Shown here one piece after another: positions 5,334-27,206 of a DNA stretch of 64,000 nucleotides. Source of the DNA: Gemmatimonadales bacterium (GTDB taxonomy: Bacteria; Gemmatimonadota; Gemmatimonadetes; Gemmatimonadales; GWC2-71-9). The notes beneath the pieces were generated by a model that worked only from the letters and a program-made list of their open reading frames with translations, made no database searches and was not told the origin of the DNA. Numbering within the stretch: position 1 is the first letter of the stretch; each line of letters begins with the position of its first letter. The position numbers were made by a program, and so were the translations under genes. Where the stretch lies: the NCBI GenBank assembly GCA_035553475.1, contig DATNDQ010000062.1, positions 360 through 64,359 of the forward strand, in the 5' to 3' direction.

Positions 5334-5887
5334 GATTGTTCGTGGCCGTCAACTTCCCGGCCACGTTGCGCGCGCGCTTGTGGGAGGCCACTGAGCGGCT
5401 GCGGGCGATGCACCTCCCCGTCCGCTGGGTGGCCCAGGACGGCATGCACCTGACCCTCAAGTTTCTCGGCGAGACGGACGAGCAGCGCCTCGGGGAGCTG
5501 GGAGATGCGCTCGACCGGGCGGTGGCAGGCGTGCGCTCGATGCCCGTGACCGTTGAGGGGTTCGGCGCCTTTCCTGACGCCGCCCATCCCTCCGTGATCT
5601 GGGCCGGCGTCGTCAGCGATCCCGCGCTCGAGCTGCTGCAGCATGGAGTGGAGCAGGCGTTCGGTCCGCTGGGGTTCCCTCCGGAAGGGCGACCGTTCAG
5701 GCCCCACGTCACCCTGGGCCGGTCCCGGCGAGACAGCCCCAAGGGGGCCTTTCGGGTACTGGAAGAGGCCCTGGACGCTCTCGTCTGGAGTGAAACCGCG
5801 GAAGTGACCTCCGTCGAATTGATGAAGAGCACCACCACGAAGGGCGGGGCGGTGTACGAGGAGGTACGGCATGGACGGCTGTCTTAA
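5330..5887 (+). CDS. thpR: RNA 2',3'-cyclic phosphodiesterase (2H family, ThpR/LigT)
   Basis: 185-aa ORF with two HxT/S motifs (HLTLKF and HVTLGR). GTG start in a GTGA overlap with the upstream stop. Confidence 0.85.
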   Translation: MRLFVAVNFPATLRARLWEATERLRAMHLPVRWVAQDGMHLTLKFLGETDEQRLGELGDALDRAVAGVRSMPVTVEGFGAFPDAAHPSVIWAGVVSDPALELLQHGVEQAFGPLGFPPEGRPFRPHVTLGRSRRDSPKGAFRVLEEALDALVWSETAEVTSVELMKSTTTKGGAVYEEVRHGRLS

Positions 5888-6530
5888 AGCCATCGGGCGT
5901 CTCGGTTGCCTGCTCGCGATCCTTATCGTGGCGGGTGTCGCGTACTGGTTCCGGGCGCCGATCATGCACACCGCCTCCAGATACCTGGGGCCCCATTCGA
6001 CCCGGTTGCCACCTGTTTCCGACACGTCGGTCGGCGCTCCCACCCCGGGAGCCGTGCGCACCGCGGCCGCGAAACTGGCATCCCTCGGCGCCCCTGGGGG
6101 CCCCGATTCGGTGGTACTGACGCCGAACGAGATGGCGTCGCTGATCGGCGGGGGGATCGACTGGACCGTACGGAAGGGGTTCGACTCCCTTCGGGTGGAG
6201 CTGATGAACGGCAGTATCGCCGTGGACGCGCGGCTCGATACGCGCGTCCTGCCCCGCGACGCGCTGGGGCCAGCGGAGCACGTGCTCGCGACGTATGAGC
6301 CATTACGGATGGCGGGGCCGGTGACCATTGGGACGCCCGGTGTGGCGCACTGGAAGATCCAGGAGCTGTCGGTCCACGGATTCCCGTTCCCGTCGCCGGC
6401 CGTGAACCGGCTGGCGAAGCTCGTCGCCGGGGCCGACGACGGCAGTGTGCCGGTGCTCGTCCCGACGACCATCCGCCGGATCGAGATCAACCCCACGGGT
6501 GTGGTGTGCTACCGGAGGCCCAAGGCGTGA
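5871..6530 (+). CDS. Hypothetical membrane-anchored protein
   Basis: 219-aa ORF with an N-terminal TM helix (LGCLLAILIVAGVAYWF). Coding-like codon bias. I recognise no family. Confidence 0.6.
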   Translation: MDGCLKAIGRLGCLLAILIVAGVAYWFRAPIMHTASRYLGPHSTRLPPVSDTSVGAPTPGAVRTAAAKLASLGAPGGPDSVVLTPNEMASLIGGGIDWTVRKGFDSLRVELMNGSIAVDARLDTRVLPRDALGPAEHVLATYEPLRMAGPVTIGTPGVAHWKIQELSVHGFPFPSPAVNRLAKLVAGADDGSVPVLVPTTIRRIEINPTGVVCYRRPKA

Positions 6531-19277: not shown

Positions 19278-19652
19278 CTAGATTCGTCCCACCAGACTCC
19301 CCAGCAGTATCAGCAGGACCACGAGCGTAATGACCTGATACTTTCTGTCTCGCTCCATCAGGAATCCCACCAGCGAAAGCGCGACCCGCGCCACCGGGGT
19401 CGCGATCAACAGCAGCAGCCCCAATTGCGTCAGCGCCCGCGGTTCCAGGTGCAAGGACCCACGCAGGATGCCCACGAGCGACGACAGCTCAGGGGGCTCA
19501 CCCCGAAAGACGGCGTAGTGAACGGGCTCGCCGCCGTGCTGCGCCAGAAAGAGCGCTCCTCCCACCGCCGCCACGAAGGCCGCGGTCAGCACTCCGAACC
19601 GGAGCACGGACCCGACGGCCCGCTGGACCTTGGCGTCGTCCCAGCGGACCAT
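19278..19652 (-). CDS. DUF1634 membrane protein
   Basis: 124 aa with 3-4 TM helices. This family usually pairs with TauE/SafE permeases. 1-nt TGATG overlap with the upstream gene. Confidence 0.8.
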   Translation of the reverse strand: MVRWDDAKVQRAVGSVLRFGVLTAAFVAAVGGALFLAQHGGEPVHYAVFRGEPPELSSLVGILRGSLHLEPRALTQLGLLLLIATPVARVALSLVGFLMERDRKYQVITLVVLLILLGSLVGRI

Positions 19653-20488
19653 CAGATCGTCCCCTGGATGGCGCGATACACCATCTCGATGGCCAGTGCC
19701 ACGATGACGACGCTGAACACAAGGCGCAGATGCTTGGGGTGTGTCCGCGTGAGGATCCGGGCGCCGAGGAGGGCGCCGGCCAGCACACCGAGCATGACGG
19801 GGAAGGAGAGCACCGGGTCGATGTAGCCGCGCCGGAGGTAGACCCCCGCGCTCGCGGCGGCGGTCACGCCGATCATGAAGTTCGAGGTGGTCGTCGAAAC
19901 CTTGAAGGGAAGGCGCATCGCGTTATCCATCGCCAGCACCTTCACCGCGCCCGACCCGATGCCCAGAAGCCCGGACAGAATGCCCGCCACGAACATGAGA
20001 GAGAAGCCGGTGGCCACCCGCTGGACGCCGTACGGCTGGAGCCCATCCGGCGTGGGGTACGTGCCGTTCAAGCGCAGGGAGCGGGCCAGGGGATCGGACA
20101 GGTCCTGGGTGACATGCTCGACCCGGGGCCGGGCGGACAGCCATGCGGAATACAGCAAGACCGCGGCAAAGACGATGGCGATGGCACTGGTGGAGATCAT
20201 CCCGGCGAGGAACGCGCCGCCGAGCGCGCCCACGGTGGTCGCGATTTCCAGGAACATCCCGATCCGGATGTTGGTGTAGCCCTCACGGACGTACGCGGCA
20301 GCCGCGCCCGAGCTCGTCGCGATCACGCTGATGAGGGAGGCACCGATGGCGTACTGCAGATTGACCCCGAACCCGATGGCGAGGAGAGGCACGATCACCA
20401 TCCCACCTCCCAGCCCCGTCAACGAACCCAGCAGTCCCGCCAGAAAAGAGCCGCCGAAGAGGAGGGCGGCGAATAGCGCCGCGCTCAC
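19652..20488 (-). CDS. TauE/SafE-family sulfite/anion exporter
   Basis: 278 aa, polytopic, with Gly-rich repeats (LLGSLTGLGGGMVIVPLL ... LLGIGSGAVKV). Confidence 0.88.
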   Translation of the reverse strand: MSAALFAALLFGGSFLAGLLGSLTGLGGGMVIVPLLAIGFGVNLQYAIGASLISVIATSSGAAAAYVREGYTNIRIGMFLEIATTVGALGGAFLAGMISTSAIAIVFAAVLLYSAWLSARPRVEHVTQDLSDPLARSLRLNGTYPTPDGLQPYGVQRVATGFSLMFVAGILSGLLGIGSGAVKVLAMDNAMRLPFKVSTTTSNFMIGVTAAASAGVYLRRGYIDPVLSFPVMLGVLAGALLGARILTRTHPKHLRLVFSVVIVALAIEMVYRAIQGTI

Positions 20489-22440
20489 CCGTCCCCGCGC
20501 GCCGCGGCCGGCTCGAACACTTTCCCTTCGACGAAGAGGCGGTAGAGCTCGCCGTCCAGCTGCCCCTGGGTGACTTCCTGCTTCATGATGTCGAGGGCGC
20601 GCTCCGCCGGAACGGCCCGCTTGTAGGGACGGTCCTGCGCGGTGAGGGCGTCGAAGATGTCCGAGATGGTCATCATGCGCGTCTGAATCGGGATCGCTTC
20701 GCCCTGGATCTTTCGGGGGTAACCCCGGCCGTCGAGCTTCTCGTGATGGCCGTACGCGATGTCCGGGATGCGCTTCAGCTCACGGGTCCAGGGGATTTCC
20801 TTCAGGAAGTTGAACGTGTGGGTGACGTGACTCTCGATCTCAAGGCGCTCGGCTTCGTCCAGCGATCCCTTCGGGATGGTCAGGTATCGCACTTCGTCAG
20901 GCGTCAGGAGCGGCTGCGGAGCACCCGCCAGGTCGGCGTAGGTCCGCCGCGCGAATTCCGACAGATCGTGCTTGCTCTGTTCGGGCAGGAGTGAAGGCTC
21001 GTTCGACTGCAAGACGGTCTCCAGGAACCGGTCGAGATCGGCGAGGGACTTCCGGTGTTCCTCGTCCAGCTTCTCCTGGAATGCCGGATACCCCTTCTTG
21101 CCGTGCTCCTCGAGGAACTCCGTGCGTCGCTGCCAGAAGTCCCGCTCCAGCGAACGGCGTACAAAGGCGTGCCGCTGGCGGATGAGGTCCAGGTCGGGCG
21201 GATAGAGCTTCTTCGCCTTGACCAGAACCTGCTCCCGGACGCCGACCTTGCCGAAGTCGTGCAGGAGGCCGGCGTACCGGATCTCCCGGACCTGCTCGCG
21301 CGTGAACCGGATGGCCTTGTACGGGCCCTGTACGGCGCGGTCCACCACGGAGGCGAGGGAAACCGTGTAGTCGGCCACGCGGCCGGAGTGACCGAAGGTG
21401 GTCGGGTCCCGTTGCTCGATGGCCTGAACGGATGCGCGGACGAATCCTTCGAACAACCGCTCGATCTCCTGATACAGCCGGCTGTTTTCGATGGCGACCG
21501 CCGCCTGGGCCGCGAGGGCGGTCACCAGCTCCACGCTCCGGCGGGAGTAGGGCACCACCTCGCGCTCGACGTCCGCCGCCGTCCCCAGGACCGCGTCGGA
21601 GTTCCGCTTCCGGTTGATCAGCTGCAGCACGCCGATGCGCTGGTCCCGGTGATCCTTCATGGGGATGACGAGCATGGACTTCGACCGGTAGCCGTACCGT
21701 TCGTCGAACGAGCGGTTGATCGAATACTCGACATCCGGGGGGAGATAGTAGGCGTCGTCGATGACCAGGGGGTCACCGGTGACCGCCGTGTAGCCCGCGA
21801 GGCTCGAGCGGTCCATCGGGATGGTGAACTCGACGAACGGCGCTTCGGGTTTGGAAAATGTCTGAGCGAGAGAGAAGCGCAAACGCGGGGACCCGCTGTC
21901 GGCCGCCTCCACCAGATACAACGAGCCGGCATCTGACTGGGTGATGCGGCGCGCTTGCGTGAGGATGAGCTCGAGCAGCGTCTTCAGATCCCGCTCGGTC
22001 CCGAGCGCCGCGCCGATCCGGGTGAATTCGCCGATTTCCTGGGAGCGTTGCTCCGCCTGGGCCATGGCGCGGGCCGCCTCCCGTCGCGCCGCCGCTTCCC
22101 GCAGGCCGCTGCGGACCGCGATCAGGAGCTGACGGGGACCGATGGGGTGGCGGACGAACGCCGCGAGGAGCTCCGTGGCGAAGGGCTCCGGGACGTCCAG
22201 CTCACCCTCTCGTCCCAGCGCGATGATCGCGCCTCCCGCATCAACGAACCCCCGCTGGGCGTCGAGCGGGAAGGCGGAGCGGGACCCCCCATCCAGGAGG
22301 AACACCGTGGGCCGCTCATCCACCTCGAGCTGGAGCGGTCCGGAAATGGGCCGCGCCTCGATCTGGGCGCCGGCGAGGGCGTCCAGCACGATCGCCGGCG
22401 ACCAGCCGGTGGGGTGCAGGAGGACGTAGCGCGCGCTCAT
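20485..22440 (-). CDS. HD-GYP phosphodiesterase with N-terminal receiver-like domain and GAF domain
   Basis: 651 aa. GAF region (LLELILTQARRITQSDAGSLYLVE...). HD-GYP motifs HDFGKVGV and HHEKLDGRGYPR. The N-terminal ~120 aa are REC-like but I see no clear acceptor motif. Confidence 0.9.
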   Translation of the reverse strand: MSARYVLLHPTGWSPAIVLDALAGAQIEARPISGPLQLEVDERPTVFLLDGGSRSAFPLDAQRGFVDAGGAIIALGREGELDVPEPFATELLAAFVRHPIGPRQLLIAVRSGLREAAARREAARAMAQAEQRSQEIGEFTRIGAALGTERDLKTLLELILTQARRITQSDAGSLYLVEAADSGSPRLRFSLAQTFSKPEAPFVEFTIPMDRSSLAGYTAVTGDPLVIDDAYYLPPDVEYSINRSFDERYGYRSKSMLVIPMKDHRDQRIGVLQLINRKRNSDAVLGTAADVEREVVPYSRRSVELVTALAAQAAVAIENSRLYQEIERLFEGFVRASVQAIEQRDPTTFGHSGRVADYTVSLASVVDRAVQGPYKAIRFTREQVREIRYAGLLHDFGKVGVREQVLVKAKKLYPPDLDLIRQRHAFVRRSLERDFWQRRTEFLEEHGKKGYPAFQEKLDEEHRKSLADLDRFLETVLQSNEPSLLPEQSKHDLSEFARRTYADLAGAPQPLLTPDEVRYLTIPKGSLDEAERLEIESHVTHTFNFLKEIPWTRELKRIPDIAYGHHEKLDGRGYPRKIQGEAIPIQTRMMTISDIFDALTAQDRPYKRAVPAERALDIMKQEVTQGQLDGELYRLFVEGKVFEPAAARGDG

Positions 22441-23351
22441 GGCTTGGTCGAGTCCTTGGGTGGATCCGCCTTGTCCGGAGGCAGCGGGGTCACACCGGTC
22501 AGGAAACGATAGGGCCGCCGGGATACCGCGTCGGCGAAGTGATTCAGCTGACGCGACAGCTCCGCCAGGTTTGTCGCCGTTGCCCGGAGATCGCCCCGGT
22601 TTTCGCTGGCCATGACCTGCGCGCTCTGGACCACGGAGTCCAAATGGACCAGCAACCGGTTCGACGAGGCCAGCGTGGCGGTCACCGAATCCGCGATGCC
22701 GGGCGGAATCCGGCGGGTGATCGAGTCGATCCGGGCCATGCTCGACGAGACGCTGGTGACCGCGGCGGACAGGCTCGGCGTCATGCTCTGGATCGTGCTG
22801 TTCGCGGACGCCAGCGTGCGCTGCACCCCCACCAGGGCGTCACGCGCCCTCAGCAGGACGTCGTGTACGTCACTCGACAGGCTGGTCACCACGACCTTCA
22901 GCGAGTCGAGGGCCGAGGAGGGGCGATCGGAATTGATGGTGTCGCCGGCGCCGAGCGTGCGGGCGATCCCATGGGTCGAGTCGGGGAGGATCAGGACGAT
23001 TTCCGACGCCGACGAGATCTGGGACACCGATGCAATCGACGCCTTGGTGCCGAGCGGCAACAGCAGCTTCGAGCCGTTTTCGAATTCCTGCGCGAGGGAG
23101 AGGCGCGCGATGAACGACACCCGGCGGCTGGTGGGGTCGACGCGCGGCACGATCGACGCCACGCGTCCGATCTCCAGGCCTTCCACCAGGACCCGGGTGT
23201 CGGCACTGATCCCCTCGGCGTTGGCGACGCGCATATACAGGGCGTAGCGCCGCTGGCCCCACCCGCTGGTCGCGAGCAGTGCCCCGATCACCAGCCCGAC
23301 GGCGACCACGATCAAGAGCCCGACGATGAAGTCCTGACGGTTGGTTTCCAC
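22437..23351 (-). CDS. MlaD/MCE-family protein
   Basis: 304 aa. N-terminal TM helix (FIVGLLIVVAVGLVIGALL), an MCE domain (YMRVANAEGISADTRVLVEGLEIGRVASI) and a helical C-terminus. Confidence 0.85.
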   Translation of the reverse strand: METNRQDFIVGLLIVVAVGLVIGALLATSGWGQRRYALYMRVANAEGISADTRVLVEGLEIGRVASIVPRVDPTSRRVSFIARLSLAQEFENGSKLLLPLGTKASIASVSQISSASEIVLILPDSTHGIARTLGAGDTINSDRPSSALDSLKVVVTSLSSDVHDVLLRARDALVGVQRTLASANSTIQSMTPSLSAAVTSVSSSMARIDSITRRIPPGIADSVTATLASSNRLLVHLDSVVQSAQVMASENRGDLRATATNLAELSRQLNHFADAVSRRPYRFLTGVTPLPPDKADPPKDSTKP

Positions 23352-23367
23352 GGCTCCTCGAAATTCG

Positions 23368-24060
23368 CTACGCGGGCTCGAGCTCGAGCGCGCCTTGCCG
23401 GCCCAGCCGGTAGATCCGTTCCACCCGGTTATGCAGCAGCGACGGCAGCTCCTGGCAGGTGATCAGCACCGACCGGCGCCCGCCCTGGACCTCTTCGCCG
23501 CCCCGCGCCAGGGTCAAGAGCTCCCCCGCCACGCGGGACGAGAGACCATCGAACGGCTGTTCCAGAATCAGCAATGACGGATCGAAGGCGAGGGCCCGGA
23601 CCAGCGCGGTGCGCCGCCGCTCTTCTTCATTCGCCTGTGCGGGGCGGAGGCCGCCGATGCGGCCAATGCGGCCCGCGGCCAACATCACCTCGACTCGTCC
23701 CTCGATCTCCTTCGAGCCGGTCGTGCTCCCGAACCGCAGGGGCAGGGCCACGTTGTCGCGGAGTGAGAGATTTTGCAGCAGGCCGTCGCCGGCTGGAAGG
23801 TAGCCCACGCGGCGGCGGAAGGCCAAGCGTTCGCGCTCCGGAAGGTCCGTCAGGTCGGTGCCGAGCACGAGGACACGGCCGGAGCGGGGAGGATCCAGCG
23901 CCAGGGCCATGGGGCCCAGCGGGGCGTCCTCTTCGCCGATGATGACCACCGTTTCGCCCCGTTCGACGGTGAGGCTGAACGGCGTCGCCGCGCGCGGCGA
24001 GATCAGAACCTGATCGAAGACCAACGGGGCGCCTTCGAAGACGGACGGGCGGCCGGTCAC
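23368..24060 (-). CDS. MlaF-like ABC ATPase homologue with all catalytic motifs degenerate (pseudo-ATPase)
   Basis: 230 aa, alignable to ABC NBDs. Walker A position reads GEEDAPLG (no GK[ST]). The Q-loop Q is absent (YLPAGDG). The signature reads ANEEE instead of LSGGQ. Walker B reads LLILEQP (D->E, catalytic E->Q). The H-loop reads ITCQE. Confidence 0.8.
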   Translation of the reverse strand: MTGRPSVFEGAPLVFDQVLISPRAATPFSLTVERGETVVIIGEEDAPLGPMALALDPPRSGRVLVLGTDLTDLPERERLAFRRRVGYLPAGDGLLQNLSLRDNVALPLRFGSTTGSKEIEGRVEVMLAAGRIGRIGGLRPAQANEEERRRTALVRALAFDPSLLILEQPFDGLSSRVAGELLTLARGGEEVQGGRRSVLITCQELPSLLHNRVERIYRLGRQGALELEPA

Positions 24061-24063
24061 CGG

Positions 24064-24831
24064 TCAGCCGAACAGTGCCGCGCCAAGGAAGATGCCGACG
24101 ATCGACGAGACCGTCGCCCGGCTCGCGGCGATGGGGATTTCGGTGGGGCCGCGCCGGACGGCCAACCCGTAGAAGCTGGGCACGACGCCGACCACGATGC
24201 CGAAGGCGAGCGCCTTCGCCACGGTGAGCCAGACATCCCGCAGCGTCAGGGCCTGGAGGACGACGTCCATGTAGCGGCCGGGGGCCATGCCGTTGAAGGT
24301 CGCGGCCCCGAGCCCTCCGGCGACGGCCACGACGTCGAACAGGATCATGAGGATGAAGACGCTGACGAGCCCACCGACGAAGCGGGGCACGACGAGGTAC
24401 TGCCGGGGGTCGATGCCCATCCCTTCGAGCGCCCGGACTTCGCCCATGACCTGATTGGTGGCGAGCTCCGCGGCGATGGCGGTCCCCGACCGGCCCGCGA
24501 CGGCGAGCGCGGTGACGAGCGGGCCCAGCTCGCGCACGATCACGACCACCATCAGGGTGCCCAGCCACTCGGTCTTGCCGATGGATCCCAGCTCGCGGGC
24601 GGCCTGCGAGATCACGAGGAAACTGAGGATGCTGGAGAGCAGGACGATGAGGGCGACGGCGTGCACGGCGGTGAAGCGGATCTGGTTCATGGTCACCCGG
24701 AACGCGACCGCCCGGCCGGCGACGGGGAGGGTGACCAGCGCCCGGAGGGCGCCAAAGCCGAAGCGCGCCAGCGCCCCCAACTGGGAGAGCCGGCGCGCCA
24801 CGATGTTACCCAGACGGCCGATGAAATTCAC
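24064..24831 (-). CDS. MlaE-family ABC transporter permease
   Basis: 255 aa with typical MlaE features (RQLSQLG..., TALAVAGRSGTAIAAELATNQVMGEVRALEGMGIDP). Confidence 0.88.
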   Translation of the reverse strand: MNFIGRLGNIVARRLSQLGALARFGFGALRALVTLPVAGRAVAFRVTMNQIRFTAVHAVALIVLLSSILSFLVISQAARELGSIGKTEWLGTLMVVVIVRELGPLVTALAVAGRSGTAIAAELATNQVMGEVRALEGMGIDPRQYLVVPRFVGGLVSVFILMILFDVVAVAGGLGAATFNGMAPGRYMDVVLQALTLRDVWLTVAKALAFGIVVGVVPSFYGLAVRRGPTEIPIAASRATVSSIVGIFLGAALFG

Positions 24832-24838
24832 CGGCGGG

Positions 24839-25546
24839 TCAGCCCTGCTGCTCCTTCTTCAGGCCTTCCTGCGCCGGACCGTAATCCGGGAAGACGTTCA
24901 GCGCGGCCTTGTACATCTCGACGGCCTTCTCCTTGTTGCCGCGGTCATGATAGAGGAGCGCGCGGGAGTAGAAGGTCAGCGCTTCGGTCGGGACGGGCTT
25001 GCTCATGCGCTGCGTGGCCACGTCCTTGGGCAGGGGCGGGAGGCTGGCGTCTTTCATCAGGCGCTGCGCCACGTCCGTGACGATGCTGAAGAGCTTGTCC
25101 TGAGAGGCGGTCTGCGACTCGGTCTTCATGATCTCGGTCGTCTCGACGTTGATCAACCGGATGTCGAGGCGCCAGTTGGTGCCGTTGGCGATGAACGTAC
25201 CCGTCACCGCGTACTTGGCCCCGACGATCTTGCCGATCTTCGCAGCGGTCTGGGGATCCACGCGGCCCGACGCGTCGAGATTCTGCTCGTCGGTGAGCTT
25301 CTGGATCTCCTCGCGCTCCACCACGCGCCAGGCGTCATTCGCCTTCAGCTCGTTGATCATCATCCCCGCGAAGCCGCGCTGCAGGGCAGGCATGTCCGCC
25401 GGATCTTTCATGCCGATGGATCCGCCATTTTCGAAGGCGAAGACGGCGACGCCCGGACGGGTGTCGGTCGTCGTGGCCTGCTGCGCGACTGCGGGCCCCG
25501 CGAAACCGACCAGGGCGAGCAGGGCCAGCATCGAACGCGAACGCAT
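24839..25546 (-). CDS. Secreted CsgG/LpoB-like domain protein with C-terminal TPR
   Basis: Trimmed to ATG 25546 (MRSRSMLALLALVGFAGPAVAQ; GAGGAG SD-like sequence upstream). The VAVFAFENGG...VVEREEIQKLTDEQNL..GKIVGAKYAVTGTF pattern resembles the CsgG/FlgO/LpoB fold. TPR-like tail. Confidence 0.7.
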   Translation of the reverse strand: MRSRSMLALLALVGFAGPAVAQQATTTDTRPGVAVFAFENGGSIGMKDPADMPALQRGFAGMMINELKANDAWRVVEREEIQKLTDEQNLDASGRVDPQTAAKIGKIVGAKYAVTGTFIANGTNWRLDIRLINVETTEIMKTESQTASQDKLFSIVTDVAQRLMKDASLPPLPKDVATQRMSKPVPTEALTFYSRALLYHDRGNKEKAVEMYKAALNVFPDYGPAQEGLKKEQQG

Positions 25547-25581
25547 AGAGTGCTCCTCGGGTCCAAGACCCCTGTGGGTAC

Positions 25582-26457
25582 TCACAACGTCAGCTGCAGT
25601 CCTTCTTGAGCGGCCAGGACCTCGCCCGGACCGCCCAGCTTCTTCGCTTCCTTGCGCGCCGCCGCGAGGACGTCATCCATCGCGCCGTCCGAGTGCTCCG
25701 GCTCGTGATGAAACAGGACGAGCCGCTCCACTCCCGCTTCCTTGGCGAGCGCCACGGCCTCGGTGTAGCTCGAGTGGCCCCAGCCGGCGTGCGCCTTCAA
25801 TTCGTCCGGCGTGTACATCGCATCGTGGATCAGGAGGTCCACGCCGTTCAGAAATCCTACGAGCTCCTTGCGCCAGCCCGGCCCGGTCTCGTACTTGCCG
25901 CCGGCGCCCAGCTCGTTGTCGGTCACGTAGGCGAGACTTGCCCCTCCGGCCGCGGGGGTCAGACGATACCCCAGCGTCGTGCCCGGGTGCCGCAGCCGCG
26001 TGGAGTGCACCTTGAACTCACCCACCGGGAACTCGCCCGCTCCCACATGCTCCACCGTCAGGCGCGCCGACAGCGCATCGAGCGGTACCGGGAACACCGA
26101 CGGGTGCATCTGCTGCCGGAGAATGTCCTCGAGGGACACCTCACCCTGCTGTGATCCCCAGATCCGGATCTGATTCCCGGGAGAGAAAAACGGCTTGAAG
26201 TAGGGAAGGCCCTGGATATGATCCCAGTGCGCGTGCGACAGCAGGATTTCCGCCGTCACCGCGCCGTTCTGCCGTTCCACCAGCTTCCCGCCCAGCGCCC
26301 GGATGCCGGTGCCCGCATCGAGGATGACCAGCTTGCCCCCGGCCCCCTCCACGGCGACGCACGGCGTATTGCCACCGTAGCGCGCGGTATGGGCGCCGGG
26401 GGTCGGGATGGATCCCCGAGTCCCCCAGAACGTCACCGAGTACTTGCGATCAGGCAC
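25582..26457 (-). CDS. MBL-fold metallo-hydrolase
   Basis: 291 aa with HAHWDH (HxHxDH) motif. GTG start. Confidence 0.85.
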   Translation of the reverse strand: MPDRKYSVTFWGTRGSIPTPGAHTARYGGNTPCVAVEGAGGKLVILDAGTGIRALGGKLVERQNGAVTAEILLSHAHWDHIQGLPYFKPFFSPGNQIRIWGSQQGEVSLEDILRQQMHPSVFPVPLDALSARLTVEHVGAGEFPVGEFKVHSTRLRHPGTTLGYRLTPAAGGASLAYVTDNELGAGGKYETGPGWRKELVGFLNGVDLLIHDAMYTPDELKAHAGWGHSSYTEAVALAKEAGVERLVLFHHEPEHSDGAMDDVLAAARKEAKKLGGPGEVLAAQEGLQLTL

Positions 26458-26534
26458 CGTAATCCTAGGGCTAAGTTACGGAAAATCTGCAACGTACAAC
26501 AAGCCGACACCTCACGGCCCGGTCGTGACTTACC

Positions 26535-27206
26535 TCACCCCCGACCGGCCGCCTCAGCCAGGGCGGGGCGGTTCTTGACCAGAATCTCCTTGCGCCCCAC
26601 TTCGATCAGCCCCTTGTCGACCAGCTCGCGCATCGTGCGCGACACCGTCTCGCGGGACGAACCGATCATCTGTGCGATGGTGTGGTGGGTGAGCCGCCGC
26701 GTGATCCGCTCGCCGCCATTTTCGTCCGCCATTTCGAGCAGGAGCCGTGCGACCCGGCCGTTCACGTCGAGCAGGACCAGCGAACCGACCTTTTCGTCCA
26801 CGCGCCGCAGGCGGCGGGAGAGCTCCCGCAGGAGCGCAATGGCGATGGCGGGGGTGGTCGAGAGAATCGGCGCGAAATCCTCGCGGCGGAGCACCACCAG
26901 GTTGGAGTCTTCCATGGCGATGACGTGGGCCGACCGCGGCTCGTCGTCGATCAACGCCATCTCCCCGAAGAACTCGCCCTCACCGAGCACCGAGAGGATC
27001 ACCTCCCGGCCATCTTCGCCGATGAGCACGACCTTCACCTGGCCCCCGCACACCACGAACAGGGCGTCGCCGGGATCGTCCTCGAACAGGATTACCGAGT
27101 TCTTGGGGTGCGTGCGCTCCCGGGCGACGTCCAGCACCCGCTGGAAATCGGCCTGGGAGAGCTCGCTGAACAGCGGAACCTTGCGCAGGACTTCGGACGC
27201 CAGCAC
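26535..27206 (-). CDS. Crp/Fnr-family transcriptional regulator
   Basis: 223 aa with a cNMP-binding domain (FGEMALID) and C-terminal HTH (RETVSRTMRELVDKGLI). Confidence 0.9.
   Translation of the reverse strand: MLASEVLRKVPLFSELSQADFQRVLDVARERTHPKNSVILFEDDPGDALFVVCGGQVKVVLIGEDGREVILSVLGEGEFFGEMALIDDEPRSAHVIAMEDSNLVVLRREDFAPILSTTPAIAIALLRELSRRLRRVDEKVGSLVLLDVNGRVARLLLEMADENGGERITRRLTHHTIAQMIGSSRETVSRTMRELVDKGLIEVGRKEILVKNRPALAEAAGRG

Follow-up and report, generated by a model that had tools for sequence, protein, structure and literature searches.

The stretch of DNA analyzed here (hereafter, the window) comprises 64,000 nucleotides (nt) from a soil Gemmatimonadales bacterium (GenBank assembly GCA_035553475.1, contig DATNDQ010000062.1, positions 360 to 64,359 of the forward strand) and contains a tightly packed row of seven genes on the minus strand (window positions 20485–27206). 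Read along that strand, these genes encode a Crp-type regulator, a metallo-beta-lactamase (MBL)-fold hydrolase, a protein that combines CsgG-like and TPR regions, an MlaE-type permease, a protein related to the nucleotide-binding domains (NBDs) of ABC transporters, an MlaD-like MCE protein and a GAF/HD-GYP protein. The subject of this work is the fifth gene (23368–24060, minus strand), an intact open reading frame (ORF) with a GTG start codon whose 230-amino acid (aa) product has an MlaF-like ABC fold but in which all the catalytic motifs are replaced; it is denoted the pseudo-NBD below. The gene starts 3 nt past the mlaE stop codon, and the MlaD gene starts 16 nt past the pseudo-NBD stop codon. 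The genes for MlaE, the pseudo-NBD and MlaD are referred to as the trio.

The pseudo-NBD belongs to the ABC NBD fold family. Residues 27–170 match the Pfam domain ABC_tran (PF00005) with 36.6 bits (cut-off 25, E-value 8.6e-9), and 203 NBD sequences of solved structures match the protein, for example, MlaF of Acinetobacter baumannii (7d06_B, E-value 1.9e-14). The AlphaFold2 model, with 108 homologues as input, reaches a pLDDT of 82.7 and a predicted TM-score of 0.84. Its top Foldseek matches are the structures of Escherichia coli MlaF (6xgy_A, E-value 1.2e-16; 6xbd_I, TM-score 0.82, root mean square deviation 2.4 Å), and the TM-scores against MlaF, LolD and FtsE are within the 0.77–0.82 range. 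The score against the MlaF equivalog model NF008809 is 43.1 bits, far from the cut-off of 441, and the pseudo-NBD ranks 28th among the 29 NBDs of its own genome that match this model; for comparison, the canonical copy located on contig C81 of the same genome scores 182.6 bits.

In active ABC transporters, two NBDs clamp ATP between them, one contributing its Walker A motif and the other its signature; the phosphates and Mg2+ are held by the Walker A residues Lys and Ser/Thr, and the Glu of Walker B and the His of the H-loop catalyze hydrolysis. The register of these motifs in the pseudo-NBD was fixed in three independent ways, i.e. by alignment with PDB sequences, by comparison of the family profile with the canonical MlaF of the same genome, and by MAFFT alignment with ten canonical MlaFs from Gemmatimonadota. 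The place of Walker A is taken by GEEDAPLG (residues 42–49; 23914–23937, minus strand, as for all the motifs below), so that the canonical GYSGTGKS corresponds to GEEDA---PLG, with neither the Lys nor the Ser/Thr; the family consensus is GDEDSG[VIL]G. The Q-loop remnant, GYLPAGD (residues 86–92; 23785–23805), opens the block with the highest conservation in the protein (residues 78–112) and has Ala for the Gln of the canonical GYVFQ (here, GYLPA). The signature, LSGGQ in the general consensus and LSGGM in the canonical relatives, is replaced by ANEEE (residues 143–147; 23620–23634; family pattern A-[NTSD]-[ED]-E-[EQ]). In the Walker B remnant LLILEQ (residues 163–168; 23557–23574), the canonical YDEP becomes LEQP, with D-E turned into E-Q (LEQP, LADP and LEEP are the family variants), and the D-loop that follows is shortened from GLDPV to GL--- (GL---SS), without the Asp. 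In the H-loop remnant LITCQE (residues 199–204; 23449–23466), where VTHD corresponds to ITCQ, the His is replaced by Cys here and by Gly in most family members (ITCQE and ITGQE, respectively). Additionally, in the MAFFT alignment, the pseudo-NBD stops ~25–30 residues short of the C-terminus of canonical MlaF, and the C-terminal extension is absent.

These alignments bear out an earlier note on this DNA, made from the sequence alone, which described a 230-aa ABC NBD-like product with a Walker A (GEEDAPLG) devoid of GK[ST], no Q-loop Gln, ANEEE as the signature, E-Q for D-E in Walker B (LLILEQP) and a replaced H-loop His (ITCQE); the losses of the D-loop and of the MlaF C-terminal extension are added to that description. 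Intact Walker motifs elsewhere in the protein, which would speak against such a description, were not found in the phmmer/PDB, profile or MAFFT alignments. The losses extend to the entire family: no GK[ST] Walker A is present in any of the 108 metagenome proteins or in any of the 76 species-level genomes, nor does any of these members contain a canonical ATP motif. In the species of the window and its relatives at 96–100% identity, three more residues are deleted from the dead P-loop; relatives in the same genus at 83–85% identity lack this deletion. Among the operon genes, to which the search was confined, none encodes a STAS domain (MlaB). Judged by sequence, the pseudo-NBD thus lacks all the hallmarks for which it was assessed, both those of ABC ATPases and those of the MlaF equivalog.

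The pseudo-NBD is not an isolated oddity of one genome. A word-indexed search detected 1,102 relatives, and identity does not fall below 60% among the top 120. Among 301 sampled Gemmatimonadota genomes, 42 encode a pseudo-NBD, and these represent 21 of the 127 genera and two families of a single order. A scan of species-representative genomes yielded 126 hits; the 80 listed are all labelled Gemmatimonadota, mostly metagenome-assembled genomes from soil, and one is 97% identical to the window. The order Crp, MBL, CsgG/TPR, MlaE, pseudo-NBD, MlaD, HD-GYP is kept in 20 of 20 and in 80 of 80 loci, with all seven genes present in 65 of the 80 and the remaining loci ending at contig edges. The ORF of the pseudo-NBD is intact in 41 of the 42 carrier genomes (the exception is genome G141) and in 80 of the 80 species-representative genomes examined, at identities down to ~47%, and no frameshifts were found in these 80 loci. 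Alignment of 108 pseudo-NBD sequences contains 43 invariant columns, and the replacements are themselves conserved as motifs, namely, GDEDSG[VIL]G, GYLPAGDGLLQNLS, RPAQANEEERRR, LLILEQPFDGL, an invariant RGGE, and ITGQE. The remnant of the P-loop is the most variable of the motifs, with 57 variants in the 76 genomes. Thus, when the degenerate motifs pointed out in the earlier note are followed through the orthologues (108 proteins, 76 genomes), they turn out to be conserved, and pseudogene-like decay, the contrary outcome, is not seen, with the single frameshifted genome, G141, excepted. Four metagenome proteins (P0024, P0122, P0125 and P0134) are frameshifted or fused calls of the pseudo-NBD gene, for example with the C-terminus of MlaE joined to the pseudo-NBD or the pseudo-NBD joined to MlaD; these are probably assembly errors that form their own cluster representatives and inflate the apparent diversity of the family.

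The pseudo-NBD is under purifying selection. The ratio of nonsynonymous to synonymous substitution rates (dN/dS; Nei-Gojobori method, 1,261 genome pairs) is 0.33 for the whole pseudo-NBD gene, compared with 0.37 for MlaE and 0.65 for MlaD; dS is near saturation in most of the pairs, so that the absolute values are rough, and the ranking of genes and regions is the informative part. The lowest value, 0.09, belongs to residues 78–112, which include the Q-loop remnant and the start of the helical subdomain, i.e. the groove of the NBD that accommodates the coupling helix of the permease. Among the replaced motif segments, dN/dS is 0.15 for the signature helix, 0.20 for Walker B and the D-loop, and 0.19 for the stretch from RGGE to the H-loop; the value for the P-loop is 0.34, and the remaining regions lie between 0.50 and 0.57. 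On the strength of the conservation and of these ratios, the reading of the gene as a pseudogene is rejected.

No orthologue of this MlaE exists in the Gemmatimonadota genomes without a pseudo-NBD: the best matches are 27–36% identical, and the MlaEs of those genomes adjoin canonical MlaFs of two types. The HD-GYP orthologue (63–74% identical) is retained in 9 of the 20 genomes without the pseudo-NBD. All eight fetched loci from non-carriers (L172–L179) read Crp, MBL, CsgG/TPR, HD-GYP, with the trio cleanly missing, and tblastn detected no traces of MlaE, the pseudo-NBD or MlaD within these eight regions. A canonical NBD in the same position in non-carriers is therefore ruled out, given that the whole trio is absent and the other MlaEs pair with canonical MlaFs. 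In the tree of the four flanking proteins, the trio-less genomes nest among the carriers in at least four places, and the carriers hold the deepest splits; this topology is read as an ancestral trio that was lost as a block at least four independent times. MlaE, the pseudo-NBD and MlaD are thus inherited together and lost together, i.e. behave as one functional unit.

The two partners of the pseudo-NBD are themselves distinctive. The permease (24064–24831, minus strand) matches the Pfam family MlaE (PF02405) with 184 bits as well as MlaE structures in the PDB, and is 27–36% identical to other MlaEs. Its coupling helix, AELATNxVmGEvrALEgmGIDP, is conserved and family-specific, compared with AELGTMrVTEQvDALE in canonical Gemmatimonadota MlaEs, and points to this permease as the dedicated partner of the pseudo-NBD. 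The MCE protein (22437–23351, minus strand) matches Pfam MlaD (PF02470) with 32 bits, above the cut-off, and TIGR00996 over residues 9–275. Its AlphaFold2 model consists of a transmembrane helix (residues 2–29), the MCE strands (35–142) and two long helices (147–212 and 220–278, ~135 residues); the helical needle part is modelled with low confidence (pLDDT 50–65). In the model, a single MCE domain followed by long C-terminal helices agrees with the needle type of MCE proteins. The needle of PA3213 from Pseudomonas aeruginosa is ~180–200 Å long, and the MCE protein of the window falls into the same size class (PMC13631591).

The genome of the window encodes only two MCE proteins and, although 97% complete, contains no match to MlaC (PF05494) or MlaA (PF04333). 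A complete canonical mlaE-mlaF-mlaD operon, with GYSGTGKS, LSGGMRKR, ILYDEPT and VVTHD in MlaF, is located on contig C81, and all the 41 other carrier genomes possess one to three canonical MlaFs, so that the canonical paralogues which the earlier note had proposed to look for do exist. This operon (G000, C81, 714–4809) is surrounded by housekeeping genes, with an RpoD-like sigma factor gene upstream and a NUDIX gene followed by ATP synthase genes downstream; the C-terminal region of the canonical MlaD (335 aa) is likewise long.

The ABC NBD fold, the loss of six motifs, the selection, the co-inheritance and co-loss of the trio, and the presence of canonical Mla systems elsewhere in the same genomes are direct observations. 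The explanation that we favor, and consider reasonably probable, is that the pseudo-NBD is a conserved pseudo-enzyme derived from MlaF that neither binds nor hydrolyzes ATP and functions as a cytoplasmic subunit dedicated to its own conduit of MlaE and a needle-type MCE protein. For the stoichiometry, the conformational state and the flow of lipids, we infer the following arrangement. A pair of pseudo-NBDs would bind an MlaE dimer at its coupling helices. What was once the ATP sandwich would contain some six acidic residues at each site, D-E-D on the face of the P-loop and E-E-E on that of the signature, without the phosphate-binding Lys, Ser and Gly; because both faces would be acidic and the phosphate-binding residues are gone, no ATP-driven closure cycle would be expected. 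Given that a single subunit has lost both Walker A and the signature, a homodimer would have no ATP site at all and a mixed dimer would have no complete one. As a non-catalytic cap, the pseudo-NBD would hold MlaE in the outward-open state that is typical of the nucleotide-free transporter, or close to it. In E. coli MlaFEDB, an uninterrupted hydrophobic path leads in this state from the pocket of MlaE to the MCE pore, and the collapse of the pocket has been proposed to be coupled to the ATP cycle (PMC7790496). With its long helical MCE needle and a genome that encodes neither MlaC nor MlaA, the module would work not as a pump but as a trans-periplasmic lipid conduit independent of ATP, either equilibrative or externally gated. 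The suggestion of the earlier note that a structural pseudo-ATPase has been retained is strengthened by the conserved orthologues, the fixed gene order, the MlaE-like dN/dS and the conserved replacement motifs. Of the two modes of operation which that note left open, transport without ATP at the pseudo-NBD is, by the logic of the motifs, probably the correct one.

Known systems resemble the trio in part. MlaFEDB of E. coli, A. baumannii and P. aeruginosa (6xbd, 6xgy, 7d06) shares the order MlaE, NBD, MCE; MlaF is the best structural match of the pseudo-NBD, and the permease is a full-length homologue of MlaE. However, MlaF is active, with all the motifs in place, a C-terminal ‘handshake’ extension and the STAS partner MlaB, whereas here the motifs and the extension are gone and the operon encodes no MlaB; moreover, the genome lacks MlaC and MlaA, and the MCE protein has a long helical needle. 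The PA3211–PA3214 system of P. aeruginosa includes an MlaE-like permease, an NBD, a single-MCE protein of ~300 aa whose helical needle is of sufficient length to span the periplasm, and the gene of an additional envelope partner; in that system, PA3212 is described as an ATPase and the outer partner is a PqiC-like lipoprotein octamer (PMC13631591), whereas here the NBD is dead and the CsgG/LpoB-like TPR neighbour, without a lipobox, is not PqiC-like. The MlaEFD ‘bridge’ of Veillonella parvula is similarly minimal, without MlaA, MlaB and MlaC, and its elongated MlaD has been proposed to form a bridge across the envelope, but its MlaF is canonical and close to the proteobacterial MlaF (PMC10665443). 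MCE tunnels that function without an ABC ATPase, PqiABC and LetAB (YebST) of E. coli, provide the precedent for ATP-independent conduits, although their membrane partners, PqiA and LetA, are unrelated to MlaE and there is no subunit with the NBD fold. Naturally degenerate motifs in retained NBDs are known in Pdr5, CFTR, TmrAB and PatAB, but each of these transporters has one consensus site preserved in full and can still bind ATP at the degenerate one; here, the subunit of an expected homodimer has lost both Walker A and the signature, with no complete site left.

Beyond the tight family of the pseudo-NBD, a profile search of 1.84 billion representatives revealed, after a gap in the scores, many other degenerate MlaF-like families. 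The motif states were classified for 78 single-domain hits of at least 200 aa: Walker A, the signature and Walker B are all lost in 23 representatives, only Walker A is kept in 15, only the signature is lost in another 15, and 22 are canonical. In the NBD tree, the canonical NBDs group together and the degenerate ones form many deep, unresolved lineages, with no single origin resolved. Two degenerate clusters are labelled Myxococcota and Spirochaetota. The six other degenerate families examined (P0150, P0203, P0212, P0200, P0234 and P0165/P0279) are also encoded in MlaE-NBD-MlaD operons, and P0221 adjoins MlaE with MlaD nearby. A number of proteins, including P0146, P0156, P0161, P0163, P0169 and P0179, have an intact Walker A combined with LSPAE, LNDEL or LNEGE as the signature and D-D for D-E in Walker B; from this combination, NBDs of the P0146 type are possibly intermediates that bind ATP but do not hydrolyze it.

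The neighbourhoods of these families show a recurrent theme. Genes for enzymes of cyclic di-GMP (c-di-GMP) turnover adjoin the operon in the family of the window (GAF/HD-GYP, 4-nt overlap), in P0150 (GAF-GAF-GGDEF), in P0200, from a Myxococcota-labelled cluster (a GGDEF gene 1 nt upstream of mlaE), and in the P0165/P0279 family (GGDEF-EAL). The genome of the window contains ~17 GGDEF or HD-GYP genes among ~2,700, and from this base rate, a match in the flanks is expected in ~1–2% of operons; the occurrence in four of eight families corresponds to a binomial p of ~1e-5, a simple estimate without phylogenetic correction, from a small sample of other degenerate families that was drawn from matches to the profile of this family. 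This recurrence hints at coupling to second messengers. TPR proteins, too, recur as neighbours in three of the degenerate-NBD families. On a metagenome contig (L180, 3624–7853) whose protein cluster is labelled Myxococcota, co-directional genes for GGDEF, MlaE, pseudo-NBD, MlaD and TPR proteins follow each other with gaps of 0–2 nt or overlaps, as an independent operon with a dead NBD; the motifs of that pseudo-NBD are GDDQESLS, VPPAL and VEDP, and the GGDEF motif of its neighbour is intact. Tentatively, and with more doubt than confidence, these families could be taken for a widespread, undescribed class of Mla/MCE systems with dead NBDs, in Gemmatimonadota, in Myxococcota- and Spirochaetota-labelled lineages and in unlabelled ones, in which the old ATP site would serve as a receiver of second messengers, such that c-di-GMP gates a passive conduit or the assembly reports the lipid status of the envelope to a c-di-GMP enzyme. 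If this is true, the scaffold of an ABC transporter has been turned from a pump into a channel or sensor coupled to signalling.

A related possibility, doubtful but deserving attention, concerns the pseudo-NBD itself, namely, that it is a ligand- or signal-gated cap or a sensor whose old ATP interface binds c-di-GMP, a divalent cation that bridges the acidic faces, or a partner such as the GAF/HD-GYP protein, making the module either a lipid conduit gated by a second messenger or a trans-envelope sensor that feeds into c-di-GMP turnover. This possibility shares with the explanation favored above the loss of ATP use and differs in the present role of the old site. The near-invariance of the replaced motifs (ANEEERRR, LEQPFDGL, RGGE and ITGQE, with dN/dS of 0.15–0.20) fits it, as do the c-di-GMP enzyme genes next to the operon in 4 of ~8 independent degenerate-NBD families and the existence of signalling machines derived from ABC transporters, such as BceAB-BceS, which is present among the fold matches. 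However, no known c-di-GMP-binding motif was identified in the pseudo-NBD, the HD-GYP, CsgG/TPR, MBL and Crp genes are unchanged in the eight trio-less genomes and hence do not depend on the trio, the adjacency in Gemmatimonadales amounts to a single evolutionary event, and four other degenerate families have no c-di-GMP enzyme neighbour. Cryptic binding of ATP or GTP in a non-canonical mode, as a slow switch, is very unlikely. The 15 representatives of the wider radiation that keep Walker A without the signature and the catalytic Glu (class ‘Asb’) suggest a graded path, with binding without hydrolysis as an intermediate, and the exchange of E for Q in Walker B is classically used to trap ATP (LolD E171Q and LptB E163Q are among the fold matches). 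Nevertheless, the P-loop has not only lost the Lys and Ser/Thr but also acquired three acidic ones in addition, no other motif is so poorly conserved, it is three residues shorter here, and the Gln of the Q-loop, the Asp of the D-loop and the His of the H-loop are gone too.

The other mode of operation left open in the earlier note was that the system is energized by an NBD encoded elsewhere, i.e. that MlaE-MlaD borrows a canonical MlaF, either in a heterodimer with the pseudo-NBD or as its replacement. The canonical operon on C81 and the canonical copies in all the other carriers would make this feasible, and there are well-known examples of ABC heterodimers in which a single site is degenerate (Pdr5, CFTR, PatAB), but the known degenerate NBDs still donate an intact signature, whereas here both Walker A and the signature are destroyed. 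The 3-nt spacing between the mlaE stop and the pseudo-NBD start suggests stoichiometric co-production, each canonical MlaF adjoins its own MlaE, the partner MlaE is remote from the other MlaEs and has a distinct, conserved coupling helix, and the three genes are lost together rather than the pseudo-NBD alone; energizing in trans is accordingly disfavored and appears improbable. The data also fit poorly with a functionless relic, i.e. a former third Mla system whose ATPase died and which drifts toward deletion, an idea we would hardly credit. It would accommodate the repeated clean losses of the trio, the frameshifts in MlaE and the pseudo-NBD of G141 and in the four metagenome copies, and the raised dN/dS and P-loop deletion in the genus of the window. 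However, ORFs that stay intact in two families at identities down to ~47%, a dN/dS equal to that of MlaE and as low as 0.09 in the groove block, and 43 invariant columns stand against it, and the same replacement motifs would not persist throughout if the gene were a relic evolving neutrally.

The favored explanation, a non-catalytic subunit of an MlaE–MCE conduit, has to be held against several points that weigh in the other direction. The trio was lost at least four times and is, therefore, dispensable. The single-contig genome G141 is frameshifted in both MlaE and the pseudo-NBD (locus L046, G141:C1:133128-145580, at about 5742–5747 and 6446–6450), with the five flanking genes intact, which may reflect pseudogenization, with loss in progress, or else long-read indels or assembly error. 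Within the genus of the window, the pseudo-NBD evolves faster than any other gene of the cluster, with a dN/dS of 0.17 compared with 0.02–0.09; because of this rate and the additional three-residue deletion in the P-loop, constraint may be weakening locally. The rough absolute dN/dS values and the low confidence of the modelled needle belong to the same side of the balance. ATP binding is excluded by the logic of the sequence only. Finally, the replaced signature, Walker B and H-loop segments seem over-conserved for a passive scaffold, and because these segments are more constrained than pure scaffolding requires, it is suggested that the old interface retains some role, such as the binding of a ligand or partner or dimerization.

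How MCE and Mla systems are energized and in which direction they move lipids is still debated; part of the lipid transfer by Mla is ATP-independent, and the Pqi and Let systems have no ATPase. Against this background, the trio is a natural MlaE–MCE machine that has kept its NBD over hundreds of millions of years of divergence with every ATP motif abolished. It thus represents a ready-made experiment on what NBDs contribute besides catalysis, be it scaffolding, gating or signalling, and on whether a conduit of MlaE and needle-type MCE proteins can move lipids without ATP. The c-di-GMP neighbours suggest a link between second messengers and the lipid traffic of the envelope. For genes of this kind, the current annotations as ‘MlaF’ or ‘ABC transporter ATP-binding protein’ are functionally misleading. 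No description of a catalytically dead MlaF was found in the literature searched; a phylogenomic survey of Mla remarks on the ‘uncertainty of MlaF annotations’ (PMC10665443).

The four genes around the trio, all on the minus strand, form a conserved cluster of their own, with or without the inserted trio. The first gene of the cluster (26535–27206) encodes the Crp/Fnr-type regulator, with cyclic nucleotide-binding and helix-turn-helix domains, and is followed by the gene for the MBL-fold hydrolase (Lactamase_B_2; 25582–26457), another conserved member. The conserved upstream neighbour of the trio (24839–25585) codes for a secreted CsgG/LpoB-like protein with TPR, whose type I signal peptide lacks a lipobox; an outer-membrane lipoprotein is ruled out by the absence of the lipobox Cys. 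The conserved downstream neighbour (20485–22440) encodes the GAF and HD-GYP protein with intact catalytic motifs, with a 4-nt overlap between its start and the stop of MlaD. The four-gene cluster may possibly serve in cyclic-nucleotide signalling. Next to the HD-GYP gene are the genes for a TauE/SafE exporter and a DUF1634 protein (19278–20488), which are shared with the sister genome G001 but absent from most of the other carriers and so are local neighbours outside the conserved cluster.

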